Below are positions 9,344-64,000 of a stretch of 64,000 nt of DNA, piece after piece. The first letter of the stretch is position 1. Every line of letters starts with the position of its first letter. The DNA is from Polaribacter sp. (GTDB taxonomy: Bacteria; Bacteroidota; Bacteroidia; Flavobacteriales; Flavobacteriaceae): positions 132,825-196,824 of the forward strand of contig NZ_JAHEHX010000002.1 in NCBI RefSeq assembly GCF_024639685.1. Reading direction: 5' to 3'. The notes under the pieces were generated by a model. That model ran no database searches and had not been told where the DNA came from. It saw only the letters and a program-made list of their open reading frames with translations. Both the position numbers and the translations under genes were made by a program.

Positions 9344-9347
9344 AGTT

Positions 9348-13418: not shown

Positions 13419-13421
13419 AAT

Positions 13422-13466
13422 ATGCTGAATTTACTTGAGCTGAACTTGATTTAATAGTTCAGTATC
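13422..13466 (-). repeat. Degenerate, apparently nested REP-like palindrome in dgt 5' UTR
   Basis: Minus strand GATACTGAAC...AAGTTCAGC...AAATTCAGCAT resembles the element at 50435-50457. Confidence 0.45.
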
Positions 13467-13490
13467 TATTTTTAAGATTTTCGAAAATAC

Positions 13491-13520
13491 AAAAAGAGAG
13501 GCATTTCTACCTCTCTTTTT
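13491..13520 (-). terminator. Intrinsic terminator after nrdA
   Basis: AAAAAGAGAGG-catttcta-CCTCTCTTTTT. Confidence 0.85.
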
Positions 13521-13542
13521 ATCAAGTTTTAATTTATTTGGT

Positions 13543-15942: not shown

Positions 15943-16064
15943 TTGGTTTGTTTGTTTAGTTTATTGATTATTTATTGAGCCAACAAATCATCCACATTTG
16001 GGGGCTTTTATTTTACCCAATGAAGATTGGGTAACTATTATTTTAAAAATTATGCCTTTTGTAA

Positions 16065-17036
16065 TTAAAAGTCTGAATCGAAACTTATGCTTCCAGTTCC
16101 ACCAGATTTAACCCCAGCTTTTTGATATTCTGATACTCTTTTTTCGAAGAAGTTTGTTTTCCCTTCTAAAGAAATCATTTCCATAAAATCGAACGGATTT
16201 GTAACATCATATACTTTTTCACAACCAAATTCTAACAATAATCTATCTGTTACAAATTCTAAGTATTGTGTCATCAACTTTGAGTTCATACCAATTAAAC
16301 TTACTGGTAATGATTCTGTCACAAATTCTCTTTCAATATCTAAAGCATCAACAATGATTTCTTTAATTCTCTCTTTAGGCACTCTATTTACAATATGATT
16401 GTTATGTAAATGAACTGCAAAATCACAGTGCATACCTTCATCTCTAGAAATTAATTCGTTAGAAAAAGTCAAACCTGGCAACAGACCTCTTTTCTTTAAC
16501 CAGAAAATAGAACAGAAAGCTCCTGAAAAGAAAATACCTTCTACTGCTGCAAAAGCAATTAAACGCTCTGCAAAAGAATCAGATTCAATCCATTTTAAGG
16601 CCCAATCTGCTTTTTTCTTAATAGCAGGAAAAACTTCAATTGCTCTGAATAACCTATCTTTTTCAACTTCATCTTTAACATAAGTATCTATTAATAAAGA
16701 ATACGTTTCTGAATGAATGTTTTCCATCATAATTTGAAAACCGTAGAAAAATTTTGCTTCAGAGTATTGCACTTCATTTACAAAATTTTCCGCAAGATTT
16801 TCATTTACAATACCATCAGAGGCTGCAAAAAATGCCAAAATGTGTTTTATAAAATAACGCTCATCATCTGTTAACTTAGTAGTCCAATCTACTAAATCTG
16901 AGTGTAAATCAATTTCTTCTGCAGTCCAAAAACAAGCTTGTTGTTTTTTATACCATTCCCATAAATCATTATGCTGTATGGGGAAAATTACAAAGCGACT
17001 ATCATTTGGTTGAAGGATTGGTTCTTGTTTAGACAT
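16065..17036 (-). CDS. nrdB: Class Ia ribonucleotide reductase beta subunit
   Basis: [47 protein letters not shown]. Confidence 0.97.
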
Positions 17037-48437: not shown

Positions 48438-49139
48438 ATGAATAAAAATGATAAACGTACTGCAGATCGAATTTACCTCATCTTAGCAGCTCTTTTTATA
48501 GCTTCTTTAGTAACATCTAATCTAATTTTTCAAAAGTTTTTTTATTGGTATCCTTTTCAGCTAGAAGCTTTTGACGTAAAGTTATTTGAAGTTTCGGTGG
48601 GCTTACTCCCTTACCCAATTACATTTTTAATTACAGATATACTCTCTGAAATTTATGGTAAAAGAAAAGCAAATGAAGTAGTTATTGCAGGTATTTTTGC
48701 ATCTTTCTTTTCTTTATTAATTATTTACATTTCTAAAGAAGTTCCAGCAACTTCTTGGTCTCAAGTAAATGATGCTACTTTTATAGAAGTTTTTGGAGCT
48801 GCTCCTTTAGCAGTTTTAGCATCTATGTTAGCCTACTTGTTTGCGCAATTTATAGATATTAGAGTGTATCACTTTTGGAAAAAACTTACCAAAGGCAAAC
48901 ACTTATGGTTAAGAAATAACTTTTCTACATTTTCTTCTCAGTTTATAGATACCATGACTGTACTATTGTTACTTTGTTCTTTTGGTATTATAGATTGGAG
49001 TAAGTTCTGGGGATTATTACTAAGTGGGGTACTTTTTAAAATGATGATTGCTGCTTTAGATACACCTTTATTATATGCAGCTGTCTATGCATTTAGAAAA
49101 CGATTCAATTTAAAAGTAAACGAAGAAATATTAGATTAA
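48438..49139 (+). CDS. yhhQ: Queuosine precursor transporter (YhhQ/VUT family)
   Basis: YPITFLITDILSEIYG, AQFID, LRNNFST..SQFIDT. Confidence 0.9.
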   Translation: MNKNDKRTADRIYLILAALFIASLVTSNLIFQKFFYWYPFQLEAFDVKLFEVSVGLLPYPITFLITDILSEIYGKRKANEVVIAGIFASFFSLLIIYISKEVPATSWSQVNDATFIEVFGAAPLAVLASMLAYLFAQFIDIRVYHFWKKLTKGKHLWLRNNFSTFSSQFIDTMTVLLLLCSFGIIDWSKFWGLLLSGVLFKMMIAALDTPLLYAAVYAFRKRFNLKVNEEILD

Positions 49140-49192: not shown

Positions 49193-49903
49193 ATGAAGAA
49201 AATATTTACACTCCTTTTTGCGCTAATCTCTTTTTTAGAAGTGAAAGCGCAGACCTCTATCTTTTCTAATTTATTAGAAAAACACGTTACCAGTGAAGGT
49301 GTTGTAGACTATGCAGCATTTAAGGCTGATGAAGTTCGATTAGACATATACCTTACCTATTTAGAAAATACAAATCCAGATAAATCATGGTCTAAAAGTC
49401 AACAAAAAGCTTTTTGGATGAATGCTTACAATGCGTATACCATAAAATTGATTTTAGAGAACTACCCTATTAACTCGATTATGGATATTAAAAAAGATGG
49501 AAAATCGGCTTGGAAAATTCCATTTGCTAAAGTAGGTAGAAAAACTTACACCTTAAATTATATTGAACACGAAATATTGCGAAAACAACTTTTTGACCCT
49601 AGAATTCATGTGGGTGTAAACTGTGCATCTATCTCTTGCCCTAAAATTTTAAACAAAGTCTTTACTGCTGGAAATATAGATACTACTTTAGAAATATTAA
49701 TGAAAGAATTCATCAATGATTCTTCAAGAAATAAAATCGGGAAAAAGTACATACAAATCTCTTCTATTTTTGATTGGTTTCAGCAAGATTTCACAAAAAA
49801 CGGTAGTGTAATTGATTACTTAAACAACTATACAGAATTCAAAATTAACGCAAAAGCAAATATCTCATATTTGAAATACGATTGGGGTTTGAACAGTAAA
49901 TAA
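49193..49903 (+). CDS. DUF547 domain secreted protein
   Basis: Signal peptide, VDYAAF, AFWMNAYNA, IEHEILR, RIHVGVNCASISCP. Confidence 0.9.
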   Translation: MKKIFTLLFALISFLEVKAQTSIFSNLLEKHVTSEGVVDYAAFKADEVRLDIYLTYLENTNPDKSWSKSQQKAFWMNAYNAYTIKLILENYPINSIMDIKKDGKSAWKIPFAKVGRKTYTLNYIEHEILRKQLFDPRIHVGVNCASISCPKILNKVFTAGNIDTTLEILMKEFINDSSRNKIGKKYIQISSIFDWFQQDFTKNGSVIDYLNNYTEFKINAKANISYLKYDWGLNSK

Positions 49904-49938
49904 TTACTATCTTTCAATTTTAAAAATAAATTCAATTT

Positions 49939-50274
49939 ATGTCTAAAACATATTATGATGATGCTGATTTGAGAAAATTCAGCAAAATTACAGAATGGAG
50001 TGAAGAATTAGGAAACAAGTTTTTCGATTATTATGGAAAAGTTTTTGAAGAAGGAGCATTAACTGCTCGTGAAAAATCATTAATAGCACTGGCTGTGGCG
50101 CATACAGAACAATGTCCTTATTGTATAGATGCCTATACAAAAGATGGCTTACAAAGAGGTATAACAAAACCAGAAATGATGGAAGCCATTCATGTGGGCG
50201 CTGCAATTAAAAGTGGTGCAACTTTGGTTCATGGAGTTCAAATGATGAACAAAGTGAACAAATTAGAAATGTAA
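49939..50274 (+). CDS. Arsenosugar-associated peroxidase-like protein (CMD/AhpD family)
   Basis: LTAREKSLIALAVA, CPYC; directly upstream of arsS. Confidence 0.88.
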   Translation: MSKTYYDDADLRKFSKITEWSEELGNKFFDYYGKVFEEGALTAREKSLIALAVAHTEQCPYCIDAYTKDGLQRGITKPEMMEAIHVGAAIKSGATLVHGVQMMNKVNKLEM

Positions 50275-50319
50275 GCAGAGACCAATTTTTTGCTTTTGTA
50301 AAAAATGTGTGAATCGCTT

Positions 50320-50457
50320 ATACTCGCAAAAGCGAGTATCTATAAAACCAAACCATTATTTTCTTCAAACATAAATTAAAGAACCAAAAAAAAGATTCTG
50401 AATTAAATTCAGAATCATAATAAAAAATAAAAGTGATACTGAATCAAATTCAGCATG
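50320..50457. repeat. Three palindromes (two REP-like) upstream of arsS
   Basis: ATACTCGC-aaaa-GCGAGTAT 50320-50339; GATTCTGAATT-a-AATTCAGAATC 50394-50416; GATACTGAATCAAATTCAGCATG 50435-50457. Confidence 0.6.
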
Positions 50458-51507
50458 AAAAAATCATTAAAAGCCAGAAATAACGATATTGCCAATACTT
50501 CTCGTCAACTAGAAATCCTTTCCAACGGAATTTTTGCCGACGGTGAGTTGCCTACATTTGCAAAAAAGATTAAAGAAACCAACCAATTTCCGTTACGTCC
50601 AAAAAAATTAGAAATTCTTCAAATCAACTTGGGCTATATGTGCAATCAAGTATGTGAGCATTGTCATGTTGATGCTGGGCCAGACAGAAAAGAAATTATG
50701 ACTGTTGAAACGATGCAGCAATGCTTGGAGATTGTCAAAAAAACAAAGGCACATACCTTAGATTTAACTGGTGGTGCTCCTGAAATGAATCCTAATTTTA
50801 GATGGTTTGTAGAAGAAGCTTCTAAAGCAGGTATTAAAGATTTTATCGTACGTTCTAACCTAACCATTATCAGAGCGAACAAAAAATTTCACGATTTACC
50901 GGAATTCTTTAAAAAACACAATGTTCATATTGTGTCTTCTATGCCTCATTGGACACGTGGAAAGACAGATAAACAAAGAGGAGATGGTGTTTTTGATAAA
51001 TCGATTAAAGCCTTACAAGAACTAAATGCTGTGGGTTATGGAATGCCTGACTCTAATTTAAAACTAGACTTGGTATATAATCCTTCTGGTGCTTTTTTAC
51101 CTGGAGATCAACAAGCTTTAGAAGCTGAATTCAAAAAAGCATTGAAAGCTGATTTTGACATTCACTTTCATAGTCTTTTTGCCATTACAAATTTACCTAT
51201 AAGCAGGTTTTTAGATTACTTAATTGCCTCAGACAATTATGAAGATTATATGTATGCTTTACTAGATGCATACAATCCTGCAGCAGTAGAAAATGTAATG
51301 TGTACCAATACCATTTCTATTAGTTGGGAGGGTTGGCTGTATGACTGCGATTTTAACCAAATGCTTAACTTAAAAGTAGCCAGTAAAATTAAACACGTTT
51401 CTGACTATAATGAAGAATTGTTACAAGATAGAAACATAATTATAAACCAACATTGTTATGGGTGTACAGCAGGAGCAGGAAGTAGTTGCCAAGGAACTGT
51501 TGCCTAA
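50455..51507 (+). CDS. arsS: Arsenosugar biosynthesis radical SAM protein
   Basis: QINLGYMCNQVCEHCHV (CxxxCxxC), DLTGGAPEMNP, YDCDFNQ, C-terminal HCYGCTAGAGSSCQG. Confidence 0.93.
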   Translation: MKKSLKARNNDIANTSRQLEILSNGIFADGELPTFAKKIKETNQFPLRPKKLEILQINLGYMCNQVCEHCHVDAGPDRKEIMTVETMQQCLEIVKKTKAHTLDLTGGAPEMNPNFRWFVEEASKAGIKDFIVRSNLTIIRANKKFHDLPEFFKKHNVHIVSSMPHWTRGKTDKQRGDGVFDKSIKALQELNAVGYGMPDSNLKLDLVYNPSGAFLPGDQQALEAEFKKALKADFDIHFHSLFAITNLPISRFLDYLIASDNYEDYMYALLDAYNPAAVENVMCTNTISISWEGWLYDCDFNQMLNLKVASKIKHVSDYNEELLQDRNIIINQHCYGCTAGAGSSCQGTVA

Positions 51508-51524
51508 TTAAAAATATAAATATC

Positions 51525-52493
51525 ATGAGTTATTTAGAGACTACACACAACGTTTATAAAGAAGCAGCTTTAACTCCAGATGTGGGGTTATGTTGTACAA
51601 CAAATCCGATTTGGGAATTACCAGGACTAAAAATTCCTAGAATTATGCAAGAAATGAATTATGGTTGTGGCTCTACTGTTCATGCTAGAGATTTAACCAA
51701 TAACCCTAAAATGTTATATGTAGGAGTTGGAGGCGGAATGGAGTTATTACAATTTGCATATTTCAACAGAAATAAAGGTGGTGTTATTGGCTTAGATGTG
51801 GTTGATGAAATGTTAGAGGCATCTCGTAAAAACTTTAAAATTGCCGAAGAACAAAACGATTGGTTTCAAAGCAATTTTGTAGATCTAAGAAAAGGAGATG
51901 CCATGAATTTACCGGTTGAAGACAACTCCATTGATGTGGCTGCACAAAACTGTTTGTTTAATATTTTTAAATCTGACGATTTAAAAAAAGCAATTGCAGA
52001 AATGTATAGAGTATTAAAACCACATGGTCGTTTAGTGATGAGTGATCCTACTTGCGAACAACCAATGAATGATACTTTGCGAAACGATGAACGTTTGCGA
52101 GCGCTTTGTTTAAGTGGGAGTTTACCAATTGCTGACTATGTGAAAGTATTAACAGATGCTGGCTTTGGAACTATAGAAATAAGAGCAAGAAAACCATATC
52201 GAATTCTAGACCCAAAAAAATACCCTACAGAAGAATTAATTTACATAGAGTCTATTGAAGTTGCTGCTATTAAAGATCCAATGCCTTCAGATGGCCCTTG
52301 TATTTTTACTGGAAAAACAGCAATTTATTATGGTAATGAAGATTTTTTTGATGACAATGCAGGTCATGTATTGCTAAAAAATCAGCCTTTAGCTATTTGC
52401 GATAAAACTGCTGGTGTTCTTGCTGGTTTAGGCAGAACTGATATTTTTATCTCTGAAAGTACTTACCACTATGATGGAGGTGGATGTTGTTAA
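51525..52493 (+). CDS. arsM: Arsenite S-adenosylmethionine methyltransferase
   Basis: GLCCT, NYGCG, YVGVGGG SAM motif, AQNCLFN, ALCLSG, terminal GGCC; ATG 51525. Confidence 0.9.
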   Translation: MSYLETTHNVYKEAALTPDVGLCCTTNPIWELPGLKIPRIMQEMNYGCGSTVHARDLTNNPKMLYVGVGGGMELLQFAYFNRNKGGVIGLDVVDEMLEASRKNFKIAEEQNDWFQSNFVDLRKGDAMNLPVEDNSIDVAAQNCLFNIFKSDDLKKAIAEMYRVLKPHGRLVMSDPTCEQPMNDTLRNDERLRALCLSGSLPIADYVKVLTDAGFGTIEIRARKPYRILDPKKYPTEELIYIESIEVAAIKDPMPSDGPCIFTGKTAIYYGNEDFFDDNAGHVLLKNQPLAICDKTAGVLAGLGRTDIFISESTYHYDGGGCC

Positions 52494-52597
52494 AACAATT
52501 GGTTATCAATTGTTATTCACCTTAGACTCATAAATCAATCTAAATTTCGAATGGATTTGTTAGTTAGTATAAAGTGAAAATCTAAAACAGAAACAAC

Positions 52598-53089
52598 ATG
52601 AAAAACCTTTTAATTCTTTTTTTAGTAATAAGTACAACTACGCTTGGACAAACAAAATTAGACAAACTTCTTTCTAAGTGGAACAAGAGAAATGTACCTT
52701 ACATATCAGTAGAAACACTGGCCTTACCTAAAACAAATGCAATTTTATTAGATGCTAGAGATCAAAGTGAATTTGATGTAAGTCATTTAAAAAATGCAGT
52801 TCGTGTAGGATATAATGATTTTAAATTAAAACAAACAATACTCAATTTACCAAAAGATAAAGATGTAAAAATTGTTGTGTATTGCTCATTGGGTATTCGC
52901 TCAGAAACTGTGGCACATAAATTAATGCAAGAAGGCTATACCAATATCTACAATTTATATGGAGGAATTTTTGAATGGAAAAATGCCAACTTTAAGGTGG
53001 TAGATACCTTAGGAAATCCCACAGAAAAAGTACATACATTCAACAAAAGTTGGAGCAAATGGCTTCATAGAGGAAAGAAAGTGTATTAA
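52598..53089 (+). CDS. Secreted rhodanese-like domain protein
   Basis: Signal peptide, LLDAR..EFDVSHL, YCSLGIRS, NLYGGIFEW. Confidence 0.88.
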   Translation: MKNLLILFLVISTTTLGQTKLDKLLSKWNKRNVPYISVETLALPKTNAILLDARDQSEFDVSHLKNAVRVGYNDFKLKQTILNLPKDKDVKIVVYCSLGIRSETVAHKLMQEGYTNIYNLYGGIFEWKNANFKVVDTLGNPTEKVHTFNKSWSKWLHRGKKVY

Positions 53090-53199
53090 TGTTTGATTAT
53101 AATAGTTTTAGACTCTCAGAAGAATGCTTTTTCATACTAAATGCTTACCGCTAATAGGGCTATAGTCTTATAAAAATTTAAAATGAATAATAATCATTT

Positions 53200-53814
53200 A
53201 TGCACAAAAACCTTCTACTTATTTTTACCAGAAACCCTGAATTAGGTAAAGTAAAAACGCGCTTGGCAAAAACAGTTGGCGATGAAACTGCTTTAGAAAT
53301 CTATAAATTTCTCCTAGAAAAGACTAGAGATGAGTCGCGTAATGTAAACGCTGACAAAGCTGTTTACTACTCTGTAAAAGTGAGAGACAATGATATTTGG
53401 AATGCTGAAACCTATCAAAAATTTACTCAAAAAGGCGAAGATTTAGGGTATAGAATGCAGTATGCCTTTGAGCAAGGATTTAAAACGGGTTATGAAAAAG
53501 TGCTAATCATTGGTAGCGATTTATATGATTTATCCTCAGAAAATATAGATTATGCTTTTCGTACATTAGACAATCATGATGTAGTTCTAGGGCCAGCAGA
53601 AGATGGTGGTTATTACTTATTAGGCATGAAGACCTTACATGCATCTGTTTTTCATAATAAAGAATGGGGTACATCCACAGTTCAAAAAGACACCTTAGCC
53701 AATTTAACCCATCAAAAGGTAAAATTATTAGAAACTAAAAATGATATAGATTTGTATGAGGATATTGAAGGCATCCCAGAAATTATGAATCGCTTTATCC
53801 ATACTAAAAAATAA
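53200..53814 (+). CDS. TIGR04282-type (DUF2064) arsenosugar-associated transferase
   Basis: IFTRNPELGKVKTRLA, LIIGSD, LGPAEDGGYYLLG, DID. Confidence 0.9.
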   Translation: MHKNLLLIFTRNPELGKVKTRLAKTVGDETALEIYKFLLEKTRDESRNVNADKAVYYSVKVRDNDIWNAETYQKFTQKGEDLGYRMQYAFEQGFKTGYEKVLIIGSDLYDLSSENIDYAFRTLDNHDVVLGPAEDGGYYLLGMKTLHASVFHNKEWGTSTVQKDTLANLTHQKVKLLETKNDIDLYEDIEGIPEIMNRFIHTKK

Positions 53815-53830
53815 AATACATTTGCGCATT

Positions 53831-54646
53831 ATGAAAGCAGCACAGTTACAAGAAACCATCACTTTTTTAAAAGAACAAGGCATCACTGCTCCAGAGGTAG
53901 GTATTGTATTAGGTACTGGTTTAGGAAAACTGGTAAACAAAATAGAAATCGTAAAAGAGATTGCGTATACAGATATTCCTAACTTTCCTATTGCTACAGT
54001 AGAATTTCATTCAGGTAGAATTATCTACGGAAAATTATCTGGTAAAATGGTTGTGGTGATGTCTGGGCGTTTTCATTTATATGAAGGATATACGCCTTGG
54101 GAGGTTACCTATGGTATACGAACCATGCATGGCTTAGGCATTCAGCATTTATTAATTTCTAATGCAGCAGGTGCTATTAACTTAGATTATACCAAAGGCG
54201 ATTTAATGTTGATTGAAGATCATATTAATCTACAAGGCAGTTCCCCTTTAGCTTTTAAAGGCGCTAATGAATTCGGAAACATCTTTGCAGATATGCTTGA
54301 ACCCTATTCAAAAAAGATGAATACAGCACTGAATTTAATTGCTACCGAAAATAACATTCAACTGCATACAGGAACGTATGCAAGTGTATTAGGGCCACAG
54401 TTAGAAACTAAAGCCGAATATAGAATGTTGCAAATTTTAGAGGTAGATGCAGTAGGCATGAGTACTGTACCAGAAGTAATTGTGGCCAAGCAATTGAATT
54501 TACCTTGTGCAGCTATTTCTGTATTAACAGATGAATGTGATCCTAAGAATTTACAACCTGTAGACATTGCTGAAATTATTGCTATTGCTGGCCAAGCAGA
54601 ACCTAAAATGATTATACTATTCAAAGAGGTGCTAGCTAAGTTGTAA
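53831..54646 (+). CDS. Purine nucleoside phosphorylase (trimeric class) with Asp at the base-specificity position
   Basis: [37 protein letters not shown]; ATG 53831. Confidence 0.92.
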
Positions 54647-54668
54647 TTGTACCTTTCTGATTTTATCT

Positions 54669-55628
54669 ATGAACCACAGCTTTACATCTTTTATTTTAGA
54701 AAAAACAGGCGCTACTTCTTTACAAGAAGTGGAGCTCATTCAAGAATTATGGAGTGGCTATGGGTACATTAAGCGCTTTGCCTTAGAAGGTAGCCCTTTG
54801 AAAACTGTGGTGGTTAAAAATGTACGATACCCAAAACAACAGCAACACCCAAGAGGTTGGAACTCCCAATTTGGTCATGAACGCAAGTTAAAATCTTATC
54901 AAGTGGAAACAGCTTGGTACACCCAATATGCACAACACAGCAAAGCACGTTTGCCCAAATGTTATGGTATTCGTCAACAAAATAACGAAGTGTGTATTGT
55001 TCTAGAAGATTTAGATGCTGCTGGTTACACATATCGAAAACAAGATGTTTCTTGGCAAGGAATTGACAACTGCTTGGCATGGCTTGCCAATTTTCATGCA
55101 TCTTATTTAGGGCAAACCCCTGAAAATTTATGGGCTATTGGTAGCTACTGGCATTTGGCTACAAGACCGCAAGAATTAGCAGTTTTAGCAGATGCTCCTT
55201 TAAAAAAAGCAGCACCCTTCATCGATCAGAAATTAAACGATTGCAAGTATACAACCTTTATTCATGGAGATGCAAAATTGGCCAACTTTTGTTTTTCTGC
55301 CAATGATGAAGTAGCCGGTGTTGATTTTCAATATGTTGGTGGTGGTTGTGGTATAAAAGATGTTGCCTATTTTATCGGTAGCTGCTTACCAGAGCAAGAA
55401 TGCGAACGTTTAGAAGCCGATATTCTTACCACCTATTTTACGCATTTGCATGCAGCCTTAGACACAGAACACAAAGCATTAGAAAAAGAATGGCGTACTT
55501 TATACCCTTATGCTTGGGCAGATTTTCATCGTTTTTTAAAAGGATGGAGTCCTGGGCATTGGAAACTAAATTCGTATAGCGAACGTATCACGCAACAGGT
55601 AATTATAGAACTTTCTAATGGACTTTAA
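54669..55628 (+). CDS. Small-molecule phosphotransferase (APH/choline/ecdysteroid kinase-like)
   Basis: [31 protein letters not shown]. Confidence 0.85.
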
Positions 55629-56436
55629 CGTATTGGCAAAAATTGCTTCAAAGGCTGTTCTAGAAGCAGGTAAGGTAATACAGAATGCCTTACATAAACC
55701 TATTGAAGTACAACATAAGGAAGGTGGCAACACCTTAGCATCACAAGTAGTTACTGCTATAGATGTAGCCTGTGAAAAAGTAATTCTAAAACACTTAGCA
55801 CCTACTTGTATAAAGTACGATCTTGGGTTGTTGACGGAAGAAACCGAAGACGACCAAAGCCGATTTACCAAAGACTATTTTTGGTGTATAGACCCTTTAG
55901 ATGGCACATTGCCCTTTATTAAGAAACATCCAGGCTTTTCGGTTTCCATAGCACTAGTCTCTAAAGAAGGTATTCCAGTAATTGGAGTAGTTTTAGACCC
56001 TACAAATAGTACCTTATATGTGGGCATAAAAGACCAAGGTGCGTTTAAAAATGGAAAAACTTGGGAGTTACCTCAACCCAAAAATACACTTACATTCGTT
56101 AGCGATAAAACCTTAGCAAACACCCCACAAAAAGAACAAATTTTAGGGCATATTGAAAAGCATTTAGAAGAATTGGGTTTAACACAATTTAAGGAAGTTT
56201 CAGGTGGTGGAGCTGTGTTGAATGCCCTTTTAGTAGCTGAACACAGACCAGCACTACTCATAAAACCTACCAAATTAGCACTTGGAGGTGGAAGCCTATG
56301 GGATTTTGCAGCAACTGTTTGTATTTTTAGTGAATTGGATTTAAAAGCCACATCATATAACGGTAATCCTTTAGATTTGAACTCTAAAACTAGCACATTT
56401 TTAAATACACAAGGGGTATATTTTTATTCTTTTTAA
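55618..56436 (+). CDS. Inositol monophosphatase/CysQ-family phosphatase
   Basis: [18 protein letters not shown]; overlaps kinase stop by 11 nt. Confidence 0.9.
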
Positions 56437-56494
56437 GAATTAATTAGACTTTTCTTAAAGACAATTATTGCTTTTTGTATATTTGTTAAATACA

Positions 56495-57382
56495 ATGAAC
56501 AAGTATTTAAACATTATAAAAAACTCGTATTCAGGATACTGGAACTACCTGAAAAACTCCGTTTTGCTGGAGTTAAATTGGGAGAATTACTTTTATGGGT
56601 TACTAATTATTTCTTTTGTAGTTTGGGGTCTAGAAGCTATGTTTCCTTGGCGTAAAAACCAATCTTTGTTTCGTAAAGATTTTTGGTTGGATACCTTTTA
56701 CATGTTCTTTAACTTTTTTCTATTAAATCTTATTGTTTTAATTGCTTTATCCAACACTGCAGCCGAAATCTTTAATGATTTGTTAGGGTTTATCGGTTTA
56801 ACTATAAGTAGTTTTCAGTTGCTAGATTTAAATATCCTACCTTTTTTACTACGTATCTTTATTTTCTTTATTGTAGTCGATTTTACTCAATGGTGGACGC
56901 ATCGTTTACTGCATAGAGTCGATTTTTTATGGAATTTTCATAAAGTACATCACTCCGTAAAAGAGATGGGCTTTGCAGCCCACTTGCGTTACCACTGGAT
57001 GGAACCTGTAATTTACAATTCGTTGCGCTATATTCCGCTTGCCATTATTGGCGGGTTTTCTCCACAAGATGTTGGTATTGTTCATTTCTTTAACATTACT
57101 ATTGGACATCTTAACCATGCAAATATTAATTGGGATTATGGATGGTTAAAATATATTTTAAACAATCCAAAAATGCACATTTGGCATCATGCTAAAGAGT
57201 TGCCTAAAGACCATAAGCATGGGGTGAATTTTGCACTAACCTTGAGTGTTTGGGACTACTTATTCAAAACCAATTATATTCCTTATTCAGGAAGAGATAT
57301 TGAACTTGGTTTTGAAGATGATTCGAGCTTTCCAAAAAATTTTGTGCAACAGGAATTCTATCCATTAAGTAAAAGTAAATAG
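56495..57382 (+). CDS. Fatty acid hydroxylase/sterol desaturase family membrane di-iron enzyme
   Basis: WTHRLLH, HKVHHS, HLNH, HIWHH His boxes; own TATATTTG box at 56478-56485. Confidence 0.9.
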   Translation: MNKYLNIIKNSYSGYWNYLKNSVLLELNWENYFYGLLIISFVVWGLEAMFPWRKNQSLFRKDFWLDTFYMFFNFFLLNLIVLIALSNTAAEIFNDLLGFIGLTISSFQLLDLNILPFLLRIFIFFIVVDFTQWWTHRLLHRVDFLWNFHKVHHSVKEMGFAAHLRYHWMEPVIYNSLRYIPLAIIGGFSPQDVGIVHFFNITIGHLNHANINWDYGWLKYILNNPKMHIWHHAKELPKDHKHGVNFALTLSVWDYLFKTNYIPYSGRDIELGFEDDSSFPKNFVQQEFYPLSKSK

Positions 57383-57737
57383 ATTTGTTAGCTATTAGTA
57401 TTTTGTCCTAAGTTTTTACCATTTTTAAGCTAAAGCGATCTTTCTATTTTTAAAACATGTAATCTAGATAACTCTTTTACAATTGCAAACACTAATTATA
57501 TACCCTACATTTTAAAGAAAAAAATACCTTACTTCTCTTTTTTATTATTTGTATAAGTATTTTTTTGGTCTTTTATTTGGTTGTTTGGAACAAAAATATA
57601 CAAATCAAAGATGACTGTATCATTAAAATTTTAGACAAAATGTGTACCTTTACCTAAGTAAAAAACAAGATTATTTTAATAATAATTTGCAATCTATAAA
57701 CTAACATAACGTCTATTTTCTTCTACAAAGACTCTAT

Positions 57738-57965
57738 ATGATATTTGATTTACTTTATTTTATTAATATTATTCTGTCTATTCTAATAGGTGTTTTTCTA
57801 TGGTTTAAGTTAAAACCAAACAACTTTTCTCTGCATACAAAATCTCTAGCGGCTTATTTAATCTTTAATGCTATTTGTTTAATACTTGAACTAGTGCTTT
57901 TAAACCTCCATGGATATCTCCAACAACAAATGTGCGCATTACATTTAATTAAGCTCCAAAATTAG
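57738..57965 (+). pseudogene. Truncated membrane-protein N-terminus (possibly a membrane-anchored AraC-type regulator) fused to antisense DNA
   Basis: Two hydrophobic helices to about 57880; the remainder is the reverse complement of another gene start. Confidence 0.5.
57871..57939 (-). pseudogene. 22-codon N-terminal remnant of a metallophosphoesterase (PPP/ApaH-like)
   Basis: MRTFVVGDIHGGLKALVQVLNK*; GDIHG motif I; intact TAATTTTG box at 57957-57964. Confidence 0.8.
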
Positions 57966-58014
57966 AATCTTTTTCTCTAAATAAAAAAAGCGTGTATTAA
58001 GTTTACATTAAACA

Positions 58015-59019
58015 TTACCTGTTAGCATATAAGCTTGTAATAAGTACTTCTGTAGGTTTATTTTGCGGTGTAAATCTATTGTTTTTTAAACCGCCAACAA
58101 ATTCATGGTTATGAAACCACTTCCATAAAAAACCTCCTGCAAACCAATCCTCTCCCCAAAACTGATTATAAATGGCTTGTAGCGCATTTGTTTGTGCGTT
58201 AAGGTTTACTTTATCTTGAGTGCGAGAAAATTCCCATGGCCTTTTAGCATTGTAATCAATACTTCTATACCCAAACTCGGTAAATAACACAGGCTTTTTA
58301 AACTTTTGCTGTATGGCTAGTATTGCCTATTTGTGAATGTCCCAACTTTCTTCTAACTCTAAAATAGTTGGAGTTTTTGATGCGCTTAATGGAAAATAAG
58401 CATCTATTCCAATAAAATCTAGTTCGCCCCACAAAGAAAAGCGCTTGTATTCGTCCCAATTAACAGCATATGTGAGTTTACCTGAATAAATAGATCTGAT
58501 TTCCTTTATTAAGGAGCTCCAATAATTGGGTCTATTGAGCACGAACTCTTTTAACTCTGTCCCAATGCAAAGTAAACCTGCTTTTAACTGTTCTGCGGCT
58601 TTTGCGTAAGTAAGTATATATTTTCTGTAAGAAGATTCCAATAACTTCCACCCTTCTTTTGTATTTGGTTTTAAATTACCTGTAAAAACCCCTCTACGTA
58701 ACCATATATGCGGTTTAATCATAATATGAATTCCTGATTTTTGAAACTCATTGGCATACTGTAGTAATCCATTTTCCGTTTCGCCAAACCACTCTCCTTT
58801 AGTGTTAAATTCAATTTTTGGAATAGCTTTATCTCTAATAATACCATAAGGCATTAACGCTATATAGTTGCTATTTGTTTTTAAAACAGGAGTAATATGT
58901 TGCTGATTAATTGGTTCTCTAGAAGCCACAAAGCTTAATCCATTTATTTTTTGAGACAAAATTTTAGAGGAAATACTTAAAAAGATACCTAGAATTAAAA
59001 TAGTACACTTTACATTCAT
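58015..59019 (-). pseudogene. Glycoside hydrolase family 113 (beta-mannanase-like) split by one in-frame TAG
   Basis: IKPHIW, CIGTEL, LTYAVNWD, IGIDAYFPL, then TAG 58327-58329 and in-frame AILAIQQKFKKPVLFTEFGYRS...FAGGFLWKW. Confidence 0.85.
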
Positions 59020-59208
59020 AAGAGTTAAAAATACAGTTTTTTTTATTACAAATTTTTCTAAAAATAAAAAAGGAGACTGGACTTTTATTAACTCGAGAGA
59101 AAACAATGCTATATTCGCTCTTTTTATTTATAATCATTTAAAATTGGATATTTCTTTTAAGTTCTTAACTTTAGCTTCGACAGAATGTAAAGAATCTATC
59201 AACTAATT

Positions 59209-60558
59209 ATGGAACATATTGTAATTATTGGAAATGGAATTTCTGGAGTTACAGCTGCAAGACATATCAGAAAAAATTCTGACAAACAGATTACTATTGT
59301 CTCTGCTGAAACCAAATACTTTTTTTCTAGAACAGCACTCATGTACGTGTACATGGGACATATGAAATTTGAACATACTCAACCTTACGAAAATTGGTTT
59401 TGGGATAAGAATAACATCAACTTAAAAGAAGGGTATGTAACGCAGGTAAACACTGATGATAAGTTACTAAGTTTTAAAGACAACTCTACTTTATCCTATG
59501 ATAAACTAATCATAGCTACAGGTTCTAAACCCAATAAATTTGGCTGGCCAGGAGAGGATTTAAAAGGAGTTTTAGGCATGTACCACAAACAAGATCTAGA
59601 AAACTTAGAAATCTATGCTCCTAATAAAGAAGTGTGTAAAAGAGCAGTAATTGTTGGTGGTGGTTTAATAGGAATTGAATTGGCAGAAATGCTAAGAAGT
59701 AGAGACATACCTGTTACCTTTTTGGTACGTGAAAGTAGTTTTTGGAATGAGGTTTTACCTGCCCAAGAATCTGAAATGATTAATAAACATATTTTAGAAC
59801 ATCACATAGACCTGCGATTAAGCACTCATTTAAAAGAGATAAAATCTGATGAAAACGGAAATGTAAAGTCTGTTGTTATCGAAGAAACTGGCGAAGAAAT
59901 ACCTTGTAATGTACTAGGTTTAACTGCAGGGGTTTCACCAAACATCAACTTTTTAAAAGATTCTGGAATAGAGACTAAAAAAGGTGTTTTGGTAAACCGA
60001 TTTCTAGAAACCAATATAAAAGATGTTTATGCGATTGGTGATTGTGCAGAGCAAAACGAAGCTATTGGTCTACGAAGAAATATTGAAGCTATTTGGTACA
60101 CAGGAAGAATGATGGGTGAAACATTAGCACAAACTATTTGTGGAAAACCTAGAGAGTACAACCCTGGACATTGGTTTAACTCCGCTAAATTTTTAGACAT
60201 TGAATACCAAACCTATGGTTGGGTATTTAGCGAGAGAAATAAAAAAAAGTATGAAACCTATTTTCAGTGGAAACATTCCAAACAAAATAGTTGCATTACC
60301 ATTTCTTACGATGCTAAAACTCAACAATTTTTAGGGATAAATACCTTCGGAATTCGAATGCGTCACGAGAAATTTAATCAATGGTTAACCGAAAAACAAT
60401 CTATACAATATGTTTTAAAGCATTTAAAAGATGCTAATTTTGATCCTGAATTTTATAGCTTATACGAAAAACAAATTATAGCCAAATTCAACATAGAAAA
60501 CAATACACAACTAAGAGTAAAACCAAAAAGTTGGAAGCGTATATTTTCTAAAATATAA
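59209..60558 (+). CDS. NAD(P)/FAD-dependent oxidoreductase (pyridine nucleotide-disulfide/rubredoxin reductase-like)
   Basis: IGNGISG, IIATGS, VGGGLIG, YAIGDCAE. Confidence 0.9.
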   Translation: MEHIVIIGNGISGVTAARHIRKNSDKQITIVSAETKYFFSRTALMYVYMGHMKFEHTQPYENWFWDKNNINLKEGYVTQVNTDDKLLSFKDNSTLSYDKLIIATGSKPNKFGWPGEDLKGVLGMYHKQDLENLEIYAPNKEVCKRAVIVGGGLIGIELAEMLRSRDIPVTFLVRESSFWNEVLPAQESEMINKHILEHHIDLRLSTHLKEIKSDENGNVKSVVIEETGEEIPCNVLGLTAGVSPNINFLKDSGIETKKGVLVNRFLETNIKDVYAIGDCAEQNEAIGLRRNIEAIWYTGRMMGETLAQTICGKPREYNPGHWFNSAKFLDIEYQTYGWVFSERNKKKYETYFQWKHSKQNSCITISYDAKTQQFLGINTFGIRMRHEKFNQWLTEKQSIQYVLKHLKDANFDPEFYSLYEKQIIAKFNIENNTQLRVKPKSWKRIFSKI

Positions 60559-60584
60559 ATCATACACCTTAAAAAACAGATTCT

Positions 60585-62207
60585 TTGAAAATTTTACAAC
60601 AATTAGGCTTAACCGTTTTTCTAATAGCTCTTTTGCTATTTACATCGAGTATTTTTACAGGTAATTTTTCCATGAAACAGAAAGACTTTGATGCTTTTTT
60701 GACTGAAAAAAACTATAAAAGCGAACATTTTACTGAAGCTTTACAAAAAGCTATTGTAACACCAGAACCCTTGTCTATATTTGAATTTTCTAAAAGAGTT
60801 AGACAAGCTGTTGCTGATAATAACGCTTATTACAATACTCTAATTAAAAAATACAATGCAGAGAAAAACTGGAAGAAAAAAGGAGCTCAATATCAATATA
60901 AAATTAACGGCAAACCACATAGCATTAGTTTTGAAATTGCTAAAAAAGCAGGTAATGGATTTGTAAAAGAAAATGCAGGACTTAGCTGGCTGCTTACCTT
61001 TGGGCTCGGTATTGTTGGAGCACTGCTTTTTATACTACCTAACATTATTTTATTAGGAAAGCCAGGTATTAAAAATAATCATATTTATCAGCAATCTGCA
61101 ACCAACAGAGGTTTTATGGCTTGGTTGGTTTTAGTATACCTCGTCGTTTTTTACTTAGTACTCTATTTTATGGCAGACTATTTAGTAAATTGGACCTTTA
61201 TGCTAGACCCAATAAGCAAGGCTCTAAATGGAGGACCTGCTTCACAATGGTTTGTTTATGGTTTTCTATATTGTACTATTATGCTAACCATGGGGGTTAG
61301 AATGTATATTAAATACAGACACAACAAATACCAAATTATTAGAACAACCTCGGTACTATTCTTTCAAATTGTTTTTGCTTTTCTTATTCCGGAAATTATG
61401 ACCAGCTTAAACATGCCAGGTTATGATTTTAAAAATGCGTTTCCTCTAGACTATGATTTCTTTTTTGAATGGAATTTAAAAAGCTTAACCGAAAGTGGTG
61501 GTATAGGTATTTTTATTCTAGTTTGGGGTATTGTATTAACTTTAATCATTGTGCCAGTTATGGTATACTTCTTTGGTAAAAGATGGTATTGTTCTTGGGT
61601 TTGTGGTTGTGGTGGATTAGCTGAAACTTTGGGCGACCCTTACAGACAACATTCTAACAAAAGCTTAAGTGCATGGAAGTTAGAACGCTGGTTAATACAC
61701 TCAGTATTGGTTTTTTCTTTAGTAATGACTTTAGTAACCTTGTATTGTTATTTTTCTGGAACTTCTTATTTTTTAGGTATAAAGTCGCAATGGATTAAAG
61801 ATACATACAGCTTTTTAATAGGTGCATGGTTTGCAGGTGTTATTGGTACAGGCTTCTACCCAATTTTTGGAAATAGAGTGTGGTGTAGATTTGGTTGTCC
61901 ATTGGCTGCTTATTTAGGTTTAGTGCAACGTTTTAAATCGAGATTTAGAATTACCACCAATGGCGGGCAGTGTATTTCTTGTGGAAACTGTTCTACATAC
62001 TGTGAACAAGGAATTGATGTAAGAGCCTATGCACAAAAAGGAGAAAACATTGTAAGATCTAGCTGTGTAGGTTGTGGAATTTGTTCTGCTGTGTGTCCTA
62101 GAGGAGTGCTGAAATTAGAAAATGGCCCTGAAGAAGGCAGAATTAATCCTACTGAAATTTTGTTAGGGAATGATGTTGACTTAATGCAATTGGTAAATAA
62201 AAAATAG
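60585..62207 (+). CDS. Membrane polyferredoxin (4Fe-4S binding, NapH/RdxA-like)
   Basis: Many TM helices, WYCSWVCGCG, WCRFGCP, CISCGNCSTYC, CVGCGICSAVCP; TTG start. Confidence 0.9.
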   Translation: MKILQQLGLTVFLIALLLFTSSIFTGNFSMKQKDFDAFLTEKNYKSEHFTEALQKAIVTPEPLSIFEFSKRVRQAVADNNAYYNTLIKKYNAEKNWKKKGAQYQYKINGKPHSISFEIAKKAGNGFVKENAGLSWLLTFGLGIVGALLFILPNIILLGKPGIKNNHIYQQSATNRGFMAWLVLVYLVVFYLVLYFMADYLVNWTFMLDPISKALNGGPASQWFVYGFLYCTIMLTMGVRMYIKYRHNKYQIIRTTSVLFFQIVFAFLIPEIMTSLNMPGYDFKNAFPLDYDFFFEWNLKSLTESGGIGIFILVWGIVLTLIIVPVMVYFFGKRWYCSWVCGCGGLAETLGDPYRQHSNKSLSAWKLERWLIHSVLVFSLVMTLVTLYCYFSGTSYFLGIKSQWIKDTYSFLIGAWFAGVIGTGFYPIFGNRVWCRFGCPLAAYLGLVQRFKSRFRITTNGGQCISCGNCSTYCEQGIDVRAYAQKGENIVRSSCVGCGICSAVCPRGVLKLENGPEEGRINPTEILLGNDVDLMQLVNKK

Positions 62208-62337
62208 AGTTCACTTAACAAAGACTTCATAATTTATTTAACATAAAAGTCTTATAAGTATAAAATATTGATACTTTTACTGCCAAAAAATAATTGCAAG
62301 CGAATATTTTAATAAAAATAACATCGATTTTAGTAAA

Positions 62338-63030
62338 ATGAATACCTTAGTTACCGTAATTATCCCTGCATACAACGAGCAAGATGCTATTACTAAAGTC
62401 ATACAAGATATCCCCGAATTTGTAAATGAAATTATTGTTGTAAGCAATAACTCTACAGACAACACTGAAGAAAAGGCAAAAAAAGCAGGTGCAACAGTAT
62501 TACAGGAACAAAGAAAAGGATACGGGTATGCCTGTTTAAAAGGGCTACATTATATTGTACAGCAAAATACAAAACCAGAAATCATTGTATTCTTAGATGG
62601 AGATTACTCTGATTATCCAGAACAGTTAACCGAAATTATTACACCTATACTGCAAGAAAACATTGACTTTGTATTAGGTTCACGTGTAAAAGAATTGAGA
62701 GAAGTAGGTGCAATGACACCACAACAAATTTTCGGAAATTGGTTAGCTACTTTTTTAATGAAGGTGTTTTTTAATGCCCAATTTACAGATCTAGGGCCCT
62801 TTAGAGCTATAAAATACTCAAAACTATTAACGTTAGGAATGGAGGACAAAACGTATGGGTGGACTGTAGAAATGCAGCTAAAGATTTTAAAACAAAAAAT
62901 GAGTTATAGAGAACTACCTGTAAAGTATCGAAACAGAATTGGAGTTTCAAAAGTTTCAGGAACTTTAAAAGGTACTATATTTGCAGGAGTTAAAATTCTT
63001 AGCTGGATTTTTAAATATAGTTTTAAGTAA
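62338..63030 (+). CDS. GT2 glycosyltransferase, polyprenol-phosphate glycosyltransferase (DPM1-like)
   Basis: VIIPAYNE, GYGYAC, FLDGDYSD, LGSR, TDLGPFRAI. Confidence 0.88.
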   Translation: MNTLVTVIIPAYNEQDAITKVIQDIPEFVNEIIVVSNNSTDNTEEKAKKAGATVLQEQRKGYGYACLKGLHYIVQQNTKPEIIVFLDGDYSDYPEQLTEIITPILQENIDFVLGSRVKELREVGAMTPQQIFGNWLATFLMKVFFNAQFTDLGPFRAIKYSKLLTLGMEDKTYGWTVEMQLKILKQKMSYRELPVKYRNRIGVSKVSGTLKGTIFAGVKILSWIFKYSFK

Positions 63031-64000
63031 TGATTTTAGAGTACGCAATCATCTTTATTTACACCATTTGTTTAATGCTAATTTTCATGTATGCATTAGC
63101 ACAATTAAACCTTCTTATCAACTACCTTAAACACAAGAATAAAGAAGACAATGCTGCTAAATTTGATTTTAGAAATCCAGATGAAATTCCGTTTGTAACC
63201 ATACAACTTCCTGTTTATAATGAACTGTATGTAATGAAGCGACTTTTAAAAAATATCGCAAAAATAGACTACCCAATTCAAAAATTAGAAATTCAAGTTT
63301 TAGACGATTCTACAGATGAATCTGTAGAAAAGACAGCAAAACATGTTAAAAAAATTCAAGAATTAGGAATTGATATTCAACATATTAGAAGAAGTAATAG
63401 AGAAGGATTTAAAGCTGGAGCTTTAAAAGAAGGGTTAAAAATGGCAAAAGGTGAATTTATTGCTATTTTTGATGCCGATTTTTTACCAAAAAAAGATTGG
63501 CTCTACCAAACTGTTCCGTATTTTAAAGATTCAAGTATTGGTGTAGTACAAACCAGATGGGGACATATCAATAGAAATTACTCTACCCTAACAAGAATAC
63601 AAGCGTTTATGTTAGATGCCCACTTTACGCTGGAGCAAGTGGGTAGAAATAGCAAAGGACACTTTATTAATTTTAATGGAACTGCAGGTATTTGGAGAAA
63701 AGAATGTATTTATGATGCTGGTAATTGGCAGGGAGACACTTTAACTGAAGATATTGATTTAAGTTATAGAGCACAGCTAAATAATTGGAAGTTTAAATAT
63801 TTAGAACATGTAGAAACACCAGCGGAATTACCTGTAATTATTAGTGCTGCAAGATCTCAACAATTTAGATGGAATAAAGGTGGAGCTGAGAACTTTCAGA
63901 AAATGATTAAAAGAATTGTTACCTGTAAAAACGTTTCTTTTAAAACCAAAGTTCATGGGATTTTACACTTATTAAACAGCTCTATGTTTACCTGTATTTT
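63030..64000 (+). CDS. Processive GT2, cellulose synthase-like (CslA-type), 3' end beyond window edge
   Basis: Translated by hand from ATG 63030 (TAATG overlap): TIQLPVYNE, QVLDDSTD, GFKAGAL, IFDADF, NFNGTAGIWR, TEDIDLS, QQFRW (D,D,D,QxxRW). Confidence 0.9.
   Translation, partial: MILEYAIIFIYTICLMLIFMYALAQLNLLINYLKHKNKEDNAAKFDFRNPDEIPFVTIQLPVYNELYVMKRLLKNIAKIDYPIQKLEIQVLDDSTDESVEKTAKHVKKIQELGIDIQHIRRSNREGFKAGALKEGLKMAKGEFIAIFDADFLPKKDWLYQTVPYFKDSSIGVVQTRWGHINRNYSTLTRIQAFMLDAHFTLEQVGRNSKGHFINFNGTAGIWRKECIYDAGNWQGDTLTEDIDLSYRAQLNNWKFKYLEHVETPAELPVIISAARSQQFRWNKGGAENFQKMIKRIVTCKNVSFKTKVHGILHLLNSSMFTCI

Follow-up and report, generated by a model that had tools for sequence, protein, structure and literature searches.

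An arsenosugar-type ArsS/ArsM gene cluster of Polaribacter with a proposed phosphorylase and CofC-like transferase route beyond DDMAA

The stretch of DNA analyzed in this study, termed the window in the following, comprises 64,000 nucleotides of Polaribacter sp. (NCBI RefSeq assembly GCF_024639685.1, contig NZ_JAHEHX010000002.1, positions 132,825 to 196,824) and harbors a gene cluster including the arsenic-related genes arsS and arsM. Between positions 49193 and 57382, ten co-oriented open reading frames (ORFs) were confirmed on the plus strand, and all gene family assignments proposed in the initial annotation were borne out by Pfam and NCBIfam matches (Table 1). Intergenic gaps within this run are in the range of -11 to 180 bp, with an 11 bp overlap between the kinase and IMPase genes. 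The likely starts of the genes encoding ArsM, the purine nucleoside phosphorylase (PNP) and the hydroxylase were deduced from the positions of ATG codons and the beginnings of the corresponding hidden Markov model (HMM) matches. The listed ORF of arsM opens at TTG 51486 and its HMM match begins at residue 15; the ATG codon at 51525, which is located 17 bp 3' of arsS, is the likely true start.

Table 1. Features of the arsenosugar-type cluster and its surroundings in the window, with family matches (NCBIfam cutoffs in parentheses) and the occurrence of each family at the compared ArsS loci.
Feature	Coordinates	Strand	Family match	Loci (of 81)	Adequately flanked loci (of 57)
Vut_1/YhhQ-family (queuosine-precursor-type) transporter	48438-49139	+	PF02592 168.5 bits; TIGR00697 137.5 bits		
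DUF547 protein, accessory	49193-49903	+	PF04784 89.6 bits	36	30
AhpD/CMD-like 'arsenosugar biosynthesis-associated peroxidase-like protein'	49939-50274	+	TIGR04169 189.5 bits (120)	72	
ArsS, radical SAM protein with DUF3641 Cys-rich C-terminal domain	50455-51507	+	TIGR04167 439.9 bits (300); PF12345		
ArsM, arsenosugar-type As(III) SAM methyltransferase	51525-52493	+	NF038099 'AsSugarArsM' 578 bits (400)	42	
Single-domain rhodanese	52598-53089	+	NF045521 'rhoda_near_glyco' 204 bits (145)	46	
TIGR04282/DUF2064 CofC-like transferase	53200-53814	+	TIGR04282 216.6 bits (134)	70	51
Trimeric-type PNP, candidate DDMAA phosphorylase	53831-54646 (ORF opens 53822)	+	PRK08202 312.9 bits (218)	53	40
EcKL/APH-fold small-molecule kinase	54669-55628	+	PF02958, PF01636		
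IMPase-superfamily phosphatase	55618-56436	+	PF00459 126 bits		
Membrane di-iron FA_hydroxylase-family protein	56495-57382 (ORF opens 56468)	+	PF04116 94.4 bits	21	
ApaH/PrpE-like metallophosphoesterase remnant, 22 codons (MRTFVVGDIHGGLKALVQVLNK*)	57874-57939	-	tblastn, residues 1-22, 70-95% identity to the family		
GH113-like gene with in-frame TAG (58327-58329)	58015-59106	-	PF22612 on both halves	22	
Pyridine-nucleotide-disulfide oxidoreductase	59209-60558	+		16	
NapH-like 4Fe-4S membrane protein	60585-62207	+		11	
AglJ/DPM1-like family 2 glycosyltransferase (GT2)	62338-63030	+			
Second GT2	63036 to window end (64000)	+			
TIGR04283 GT2	not in window			26	

When one genome per species was scanned, at least 598 stretches were found to encode an ArsS relative. 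Eighty of these ArsS loci, mostly originating from Flavobacteriaceae and a few from other Bacteroidota families, were compared with flanks of up to 10 kb (loci are cited by L numbers). The all-against-all ORF census covered these 80 loci and the window, 81 in total, with a subset of 57 loci possessing adequate flanks.

Five NCBIfam models that name genes of arsenosugar biosynthesis or place them in this context (TIGR04169, TIGR04167, NF038099, TIGR04282 and NF045521) were matched above their cutoffs by proteins of the window. For most of the cluster core, curated NCBIfam models already carry names that refer to arsenosugar biosynthesis, a point overlooked in the initial annotation; judged by these matches, the locus adds a member to a cluster type already annotated by curated HMMs. 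Within ArsS, the CX3CX2C motif (C63-x3-C67-x2-C70) and the C-terminal Cys residues are conserved in 80-81 of the 81 sequences. Relatives of ArsS combine the 5'-deoxyadenosyl radical derived from S-adenosylmethionine (SAM) with dimethylarsenite, yielding DDMAA (5'-deoxy-5'-dimethylarsinoyl-adenosine; PMC13598754). Based on its NF038099 match, ArsM belongs to the arsenosugar-specific subfamily, and ten of its Cys residues do not vary among 42/42 relatives. ArsS has its tightest partner in the CMD protein, which is encoded directly upstream of it at 72 loci and carries a CPYC motif (residues 59-62) with at least 90% conservation. As the simplest guess, this AhpD-like protein probably holds the arsenic substrate in the proper redox state for ArsS. 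The claim that the genes do not represent an ars resistance operon was confirmed, since no ArsR, ArsC, Acr3 or ArsB domain was found by Pfam searches among window ORFs of at least 120 aa, a size limit that a shorter ArsR would escape.

Across the compared loci, the recurrent gene order is CMD-ArsS-Rhod-TIGR04282-PNP-ArsM-(FAH)-DUF547-TIGR04283, with the PNP gene usually located directly after the TIGR04282 gene. The order in Polaribacter differs, with the DUF547 gene in first place and arsM directly after arsS. Among the 57 adequately flanked loci, the presence of PNP co-varies with that of ArsM, rhodanese, DUF547, TIGR04283 and hydroxylase; ArsM, for example, occurs at 28 of the 40 PNP-positive loci vs. 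3 of the 17 PNP-negative ones. PNP, DUF547 and hydroxylase genes are true conserved neighbors of the cluster, even though the curated models do not name them for the pathway. The 'extended' operon described previously therefore stands for PNP, TIGR04282, DUF547 and hydroxylase and does not stand for the kinase and the IMPase, which are not conserved. An arsenosugar-type ArsS/ArsM cluster is widespread in marine Flavobacteriaceae.

In order to evaluate the substrate pocket of the phosphorylase, all 53 cluster PNPs were aligned to human PNP, in the sequence of which 16 of 16 landmark residues were located at their published numbers. In human PNP, Asn243 selects 6-oxopurines, and the exchange N243D confers activity on adenosine; His257 forms a hydrogen bond with the 5'-OH group. 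All 53 cluster PNPs carry Asp in place of Asn243, Ile, Val or Leu in place of His257 (Ile in the window) and Leu in place of Phe200, resulting in the triad L200/D243/I257 in the window protein. Among the residues binding phosphate and ribose, H64, R84, H86, Y88, A116, M219 and S220 are kept, and S33 is conservatively replaced by Thr in 52/53 sequences. The window PNP is accordingly a member of the family that lacks the Asn243/His257 pair of 6-oxopurine-specific enzymes. Alignments with PDB sequences revealed the same contrast independently (N/H in 8SWU, D/H in 8SWT and D/L in 4LNA). Among approximately 130 family representatives, the combination Y/F-N-H was the commonest one (48), and L-D-hydrophobic occurred in about 18, concentrated among the nearest relatives of the cluster PNPs. 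These exchanges support a pocket that would accommodate an adenine nucleoside devoid of a 5'-OH group, such as methylthioadenosine (MTA), 5'-deoxyadenosine or DDMAA. The protein may work like S-methyl-5'-thioadenosine phosphorylase (MTAP), of which it is not a sequence member (97.7 bits for model TIGR01694 vs. a cutoff of 274.85). Rosetta-stone fusions of PNP with other cluster proteins were not found among the PNP-family representatives.

The second candidate for a step beyond DDMAA is the TIGR04282 protein. It features an N-terminal motif of the CofC-like K-x-P-x-x-G-K-V-K-T-R-L type and conserved Asp residues. CofC models were matched with 28-35 bits (34.5 bits vs. a CofC equivalog cutoff of 105), and the best PDB match was 3CGX, a 'putative nucleotide-diphospho-sugar transferase' (E 5e-28). 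By analogy, the protein could transfer a nucleoside monophosphate (NMP) onto a sugar 1-phosphate. The suggestion made earlier that it activates or transfers the arsenoribose moiety is plausible for a CofC-like protein conserved at 51 of 57 loci; its place after PNP is inferred.

Taken together, the following route is proposed. As established for its relatives, ArsM would convert As(III) to dimethylarsenite, which ArsS is predicted to join with SAM to form DDMAA. PNP would then cleave DDMAA to adenine and alpha-5-deoxy-5-dimethylarsinoyl-ribose-1-phosphate, and the CofC-like TIGR04282 protein would activate or transfer this arsenoribose phosphate, most simply as a nucleoside diphosphate (NDP) sugar. 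In canonical clusters, the inverting GT2 of the TIGR04283 family would finally produce a beta-riboside; in the window, where TIGR04283 is missing, the last step may be catalyzed by another glycosyltransferase, or a different product may be formed. With an inverting PNP, the 1-phosphate is alpha; this configuration is retained on nucleotidyl transfer, and an inverting GT2 leads to the beta-riboside present in arsenosugars. The route via PNP, TIGR04282 and GT2 is therefore stereochemically coherent with the general properties of these families. The region is accordingly proposed to be the form that the arsenosugar-type ArsS/ArsM cluster takes in Polaribacter, with a PNP-TIGR04282 route beyond DDMAA, an interpretation to which a probability of roughly 0.55 is assigned.

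Several observations weigh against this interpretation. The pocket signature failed a test of its specificity, since PNPs of Isosphaeraceae (Planctomycetota) carry L-D-I/V as well; their genes (9001-9831 in both L088 and L089) are located beside the gene for isoleucyl-tRNA synthetase (IleRS), with no ArsS gene within 9 kb. The signature would fit a general MTA or 5'-deoxyadenosine phosphorylase equally well. Phosphorolysis of DDMAA, as suggested in the initial annotation, remains plausible in view of the conserved PNP and its altered pocket, and the signature as such is non-specific; the assignment to DDMAA derives from gene order, the pocket supporting the substrate class only. Moreover, 17 of the 57 adequately flanked ArsS loci possess no adjacent PNP gene, and 13 of these 17 retain a TIGR04282-like gene, for which reason the TIGR04282 protein may not act downstream of PNP. 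For TIGR04283 (224.8 bits in L069), no tblastn match was obtained anywhere in the 64 kb window, and the nearest GT2 (62338-63030), which is AglJ/DPM1-like, reaches 38.9 bits vs. a cutoff of 182. Since TIGR04283 is missing from the window, a point not noted in the initial annotation, the route has more gaps here than in the majority of Flavobacteriaceae. NDP-ribofuranose donors are, furthermore, unusual. The literature search yielded no paper on arsenosugar genes of Bacteroidota or flavobacteria. RNA contigs are sparse and may include DNA carry-over, so that their support for co-transcription is suggestive. They comprise 100%-identical contigs on the CMD, hydroxylase, GH113 (58603-58764) and GT2 genes in the metatranscriptome of the source sample and, in seawater RNA libraries representing a related strain, contigs on CMD, ArsS, the PNP-kinase junction, kinase, IMPase and hydroxylase.

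Besides the TIGR04283 search, two further observations concern these enzymes. Neighboring Tenacibaculum loci also lack a TIGR04283 gene beside the cluster. A wider subfamily of trimeric PNPs of the 5'-modified-adenosine type, comprising planctomycete and cluster PNPs, appears to exist. The literature search also found no paper on the function of DUF2064/TIGR04282 or on a DDMAA-cleaving enzyme.

Rhodanese, DUF547 protein and hydroxylase are conserved accessories of the cluster. The rhodanese possesses the active-site loop C96-SLGI-R101 (C-x4-R), in which C96 and R101 are conserved, and the DUF547 protein an invariant CASxSCP motif, both Cys residues of which (C144/C149) are invariant. Both proteins feature a signal-peptide-like N-terminus, which is hydrophobic in 83% of the rhodanese and 92% of the DUF547 family members. 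As judged from these N-termini, they probably act outside the cytoplasm, a point missed in the initial annotation. The His boxes of the hydroxylase are intact and conserved, and its gene is usually located between that of ArsM or PNP and the DUF547 gene. The OlsE model NF052566 was matched with 87.3 bits vs. a cutoff of 475, so that only its PF04116 membership stands. The proposed lipid modification found no support, since this FA_hydroxylase gene, occurring at 21 loci, is the only lipid-related one. An arsenolipid product from this cluster is speculative.

The kinase and IMPase genes showed a different distribution. Both proteins carry intact motifs (HGDxxxxN and DFQ in the kinase, DPLDGT and WDFAA in the IMPase). 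The IMPase, which scores below the CysQ and SuhB cutoffs (TIGR01331: 108.1 bits vs. 228.8), is a generic member of its superfamily. Only one of the 80 compared ArsS loci contains the pair, namely that of P. porphyrae (L001). Within the cluster, the two genes were found only in Polaribacter, that is, in the window, in L001 and in Polaribacter reichenbachii (L084), where they again lie between PNP and hydroxylase. Kinase homologs at 65-70% identity are widespread. In Algibacter, Flavilitoribacter, Wocania, Lentimicrobium and Jejuia, a kinase gene is followed by an IMPase gene in unrelated surroundings devoid of ArsS genes. In L081, L082, L085, L086 and L087, where the kinase gene is located at about 8-9 kb, the two genes abut or overlap, a pattern that extends over Flavobacteriaceae, Saprospiraceae and Lentimicrobium, and the IMPase gene follows immediately 3' of the kinase gene in these five loci and in L084. 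No match of the kinase to PDB sequences was obtained. Its AlphaFold (AF2) model (pLDDT 89.5) retrieved generic APH-fold kinases in Foldseek at TM scores of about 0.5; the 50 matches listed include APH, fructosamine-3-kinase, AmiN, PsiK and homoserine kinase and, as far as this model goes, are uninformative regarding the substrate. A function as methylthioribose/5-deoxyribose kinase (MtnK-like) was considered and dropped, methylthioribose kinase not being among these 50 matches. In P. porphyrae, a T9SS-sorted DM13 gene is inserted between the TIGR04282 and PNP genes and a DUF4365 gene between PNP and kinase (13356-14057 and 14968-16365), which indicates that the Polaribacter cluster tolerates passengers. 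L035, L071 and L084 also contain the DM13/T9SS gene. Most likely, kinase and IMPase represent an autonomous two-gene module, the position of which reflects chance at the level of the genus or, at best, an addition specific to this lineage. The tailoring by kinase and phosphatase put forward in the initial annotation is probably wrong, given that 79 of 80 ArsS loci lack the pair, which is present elsewhere in unrelated contexts.

Further genes were observed inside individual clusters. Directly after ArsM, PstSCAB genes are located in L020 (14137-17474), with the same permease ORF family and position in L066; a PiT/PHO4 transporter gene in L003 (5210-6205), with ORFs of the same family in L027 and L064; and an MFS transporter gene in L012 (14081-15244). 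The transporters of L066, L027 and L064 were assigned through the shared ORF family. The presence of phosphate/arsenate transporters within clusters suggests deliberate handling of arsenate or phosphate and lends independent support to the link with arsenic. In Kordia jejudonensis (L008, 13201-13623), a 140 aa protein of the glyoxalase/bleomycin-resistance fold, to which the ArsI C-As lyase also belongs, is encoded after ArsM. Moreover, about 10 loci, including two of Polaribacter (L071 and L084), carry an insert between ArsS and rhodanese that is composed of a second DUF2064 gene, SusC-SusD, a sodium:solute symporter-like (SSF) gene and a Metallophos_2 phosphoesterase gene. It occupies this interval in L007, L021, L024, L028, L042, L044, L071 and L084, and the same gene set is located upstream of ArsS in L019, L025 and L065. 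This gene set may point to the import of a substrate from outside in the manner of a polysaccharide utilization locus (PUL).

Other explanations of the locus were considered. In one, which takes up the linear route of the initial annotation, all ten genes constitute one pathway, in which arsenoribose is tailored by kinase and IMPase and an arsenolipid arises through the hydroxylase. The co-oriented position of the pair between PNP and hydroxylase, with gaps of 22-58 bp, in three Polaribacter-type loci (window, L001 and L084) and the RNA contig crossing the PNP-kinase junction are in line with this idea, as are arsenosugar ether phospholipids in the ocean, for which a bacterial source has been suggested (bioRxiv 10.1101/2021.03.22.436501). 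It is nevertheless improbable in view of the absence of the pair from nearly all ArsS loci and its tight coupling in unrelated contexts of five other genera, the passengers in P. porphyrae and the generic APH-type fold of the kinase; moreover, PNP already delivers a 1-phosphate, leaving no obvious need for a kinase, and the cluster contains neither an acyltransferase nor a phosphatidyltransferase gene. More weight, while still unlikely, is given to the explanation that the core makes DDMAA and PNP serves the general salvage of SAM by-products, namely 5'-deoxyadenosine or methylthioadenosine. The housekeeping context of the planctomycete PNPs featuring the same pocket, the roughly 18 of 130 family representatives sharing it and the 17 ArsS loci devoid of an adjacent PNP gene would all be expected of a salvage enzyme. 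Its fixed position directly after TIGR04282 at 53 loci of many genera and its co-variation with ArsM and the other cluster genes speak against it; furthermore, the adenosyl radical used by ArsS ends up in the product, with no release of 5'-deoxyadenosine (PMC13598754).

Two further explanations were considered. PNP might represent the missing arsenate reductase, with arsenolysis yielding ribose-1-arsenate, which thiols, e.g., those of the CPYC protein, would convert to As(III) as a substrate of ArsM. Arsenate reduction by mammalian PNP takes place in vitro in the presence of a dithiol, no ArsC was detected among the window ORFs of the size range searched, and phosphate/arsenate transporters accompany some clusters. 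This role is very improbable, as it leaves the conserved exchanges at the residues reading the base and the 5'-OH group unexplained; an ArsC may be encoded elsewhere in the genome, and PNP-mediated arsenate reduction in vivo is doubtful. The other explanation holds that the cluster makes no arsenosugars at all and acts on another metalloid (selenium) or on imported organoarsenicals, the NCBIfam names having been over-extended from cyanobacteria. The names of TIGR04169 and TIGR04282 are indeed hypothetical equivalogs, ArsS family members include selenoproteins according to model names, the SusC-SusD-SSF-metallophosphoesterase insert occurs at about 10 loci including the two of Polaribacter, and no experiment on Bacteroidota was found in the literature. 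The scores of ArsS and ArsM, which greatly exceed the equivalog and exception cutoffs derived from characterized arsenic enzymes, and the Pst and PiT transporters inside clusters point to arsenic, which makes this explanation rather implausible.

The ArsS of the window is 92-96% identical to Polaribacter ArsS, which points to a Polaribacter-like heterotroph, in agreement with the earlier notion of a heterotrophic marine-type flavobacterium, and the flanks (fabD, leuS and the Vut_1 transporter gene) are syntenic with Polaribacter porphyrae. The remaining genes of the window fulfill housekeeping functions (dxs, nrdAB, cytochrome oxidase assembly, sprA, ruvA and gcvH), and nearly the whole window sequence is contained in four riverine metagenome runs. 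The Vut_1 transporter gene is located directly 5' of the DUF547 gene (53 bp, co-oriented) in 3/3 Polaribacter-type loci with an upstream flank, and its ORF family was found only in the window, L001 and L071; its membership in the cluster is uncertain. A purine-analogue transporter would here adjoin an adenine-releasing pathway, possibly by coincidence.

Concerning regulatory elements, an Rfam scan of the 47-60 kb region revealed no riboswitch or other RNA, the sole match being a chance snoRNA (E 0.66). Promoter and terminator scans yielded no more sites than shuffled sequence, and a search for the Bacteroidetes -7 motif provided no decisive result. A palindrome is present in two copies (GATTCTGAATTAAATTCAGAATC and ATACTGAATCAAATTCAGCAT), 41 bp apart, at 50394-50456, the second one overlapping the ArsS start codon. 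The pair is hardly repeated elsewhere within the window. It was rejected as a conserved operator, since it is not kept in the CMD-ArsS spacers of other loci, L004 showing one looser match.

Downstream of position 57382, conserved synteny continues, which had been missed in the initial annotation. The spacer at 57383-58014 contains the remnant of an ApaH/PrpE-like gene; this gene is intact at the same position in P. porphyrae, and in 11 other loci it recurs next to GH113 on the minus strand. The adjacent GH113-like gene is interrupted by an in-frame TAG codon, through which the single-frame tblastn alignment to its homologs passes; being TAG and not TGA, this stop was rejected as a selenocysteine codon. 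The two usual downstream neighbors, metallophosphoesterase and GH113-like gene, are thus decayed. The subsequent block (59209-64000) recurs beside ArsS clusters and directly follows PNP in Salegentibacter (L055 and L058); in L063, its oxidoreductase gene is located directly after ArsM. It might represent an electron-supply or glycosylation module or mere synteny.

Arsenosugars and arsenosugar lipids dominate the organic arsenic of marine food webs, and enzymes have been assigned only for the ArsM and ArsS steps. Regarding the step after DDMAA, a 2026 preprint says only that adenine 'can then be removed'. The comparative data nominate the PNP with its altered pocket and the CofC-like transferase as candidates for the next steps and prune kinase and phosphatase from the route. 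Moreover, the gene set is common in heterotrophic marine Bacteroidota, which would extend the likely producers beyond algae and cyanobacteria. Tentatively, and with clearly less confidence than the reading of the locus itself, heterotrophic marine Flavobacteriaceae may be a large unrecognized source of arsenosugars, possibly of the 'bacterial' arsenosugar lipids of the surface ocean, and PNP, TIGR04282 and TIGR04283 may supply the missing steps after DDMAA. If this holds true, the trio would accomplish phosphorolysis to alpha-arsenoribose-1-phosphate, nucleotidyl activation and inverting transfer to the beta-riboside. Since the canonical glycosyltransferase is absent from this window, a cluster of the Aequorivita, Winogradskyella or Neotamlana type would be a better experimental model.

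Among known systems, the ArsM-ArsS arsenosugar pathway of Synechocystis sp. PCC 6803 (Xue et al. 2019, as cited in PMC11009773) shares with the window the adjacent arsM and arsS genes, an ArsS featuring the radical SAM CX3CX2C motif and DUF3641, and the predicted product DDMAA. In contrast to this cyanobacterium, the host of the window is a heterotrophic member of the Bacteroidota, and the genes are located outside an ars resistance operon together with genes for PNP, TIGR04282, AhpD-like protein, exported rhodanese, DUF547 and membrane hydroxylase. Classical ars operons (arsR-arsB/acr3-arsC, sometimes with arsM) likewise may encode an As(III) methyltransferase, whereas the ArsM of the window is of the arsenosugar subfamily and the searched ORFs include none of the resistance genes.

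With MTAP-type salvage and the dihydroxyacetone phosphate (DHAP) shunt, the cluster has in common the predicted phosphorolysis of a 5'-modified adenine nucleoside, with Asp reading the 6-amino group and a hydrophobic 5' pocket; it differs in that its PNP is a PunA/PNP-I-type sequence and no salvage isomerase or aldolase is encoded nearby. The TIGR04282 protein belongs to the same fold family as the CofC/FbiD 2-phospho-L-lactate (or phosphoenolpyruvate) guanylyltransferases and 3CGX, which suggests NMP transfer onto a phosphate ester, whereas it scores below the CofC equivalog cutoff and is named a glycosyltransferase, not a nucleotidyltransferase, by NCBI. The gene content was also compared with the arsenosugar neighborhood defined by NCBIfam (TIGR04167, TIGR04169, NF038099, TIGR04282, TIGR04283 and NF045521). 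Apart from the missing TIGR04283 and the presence of PNP, DUF547 and hydroxylase outside the curated names, the window matches five of these six models, and its gene order fits the family-wide pattern save for genus-specific rearrangements.

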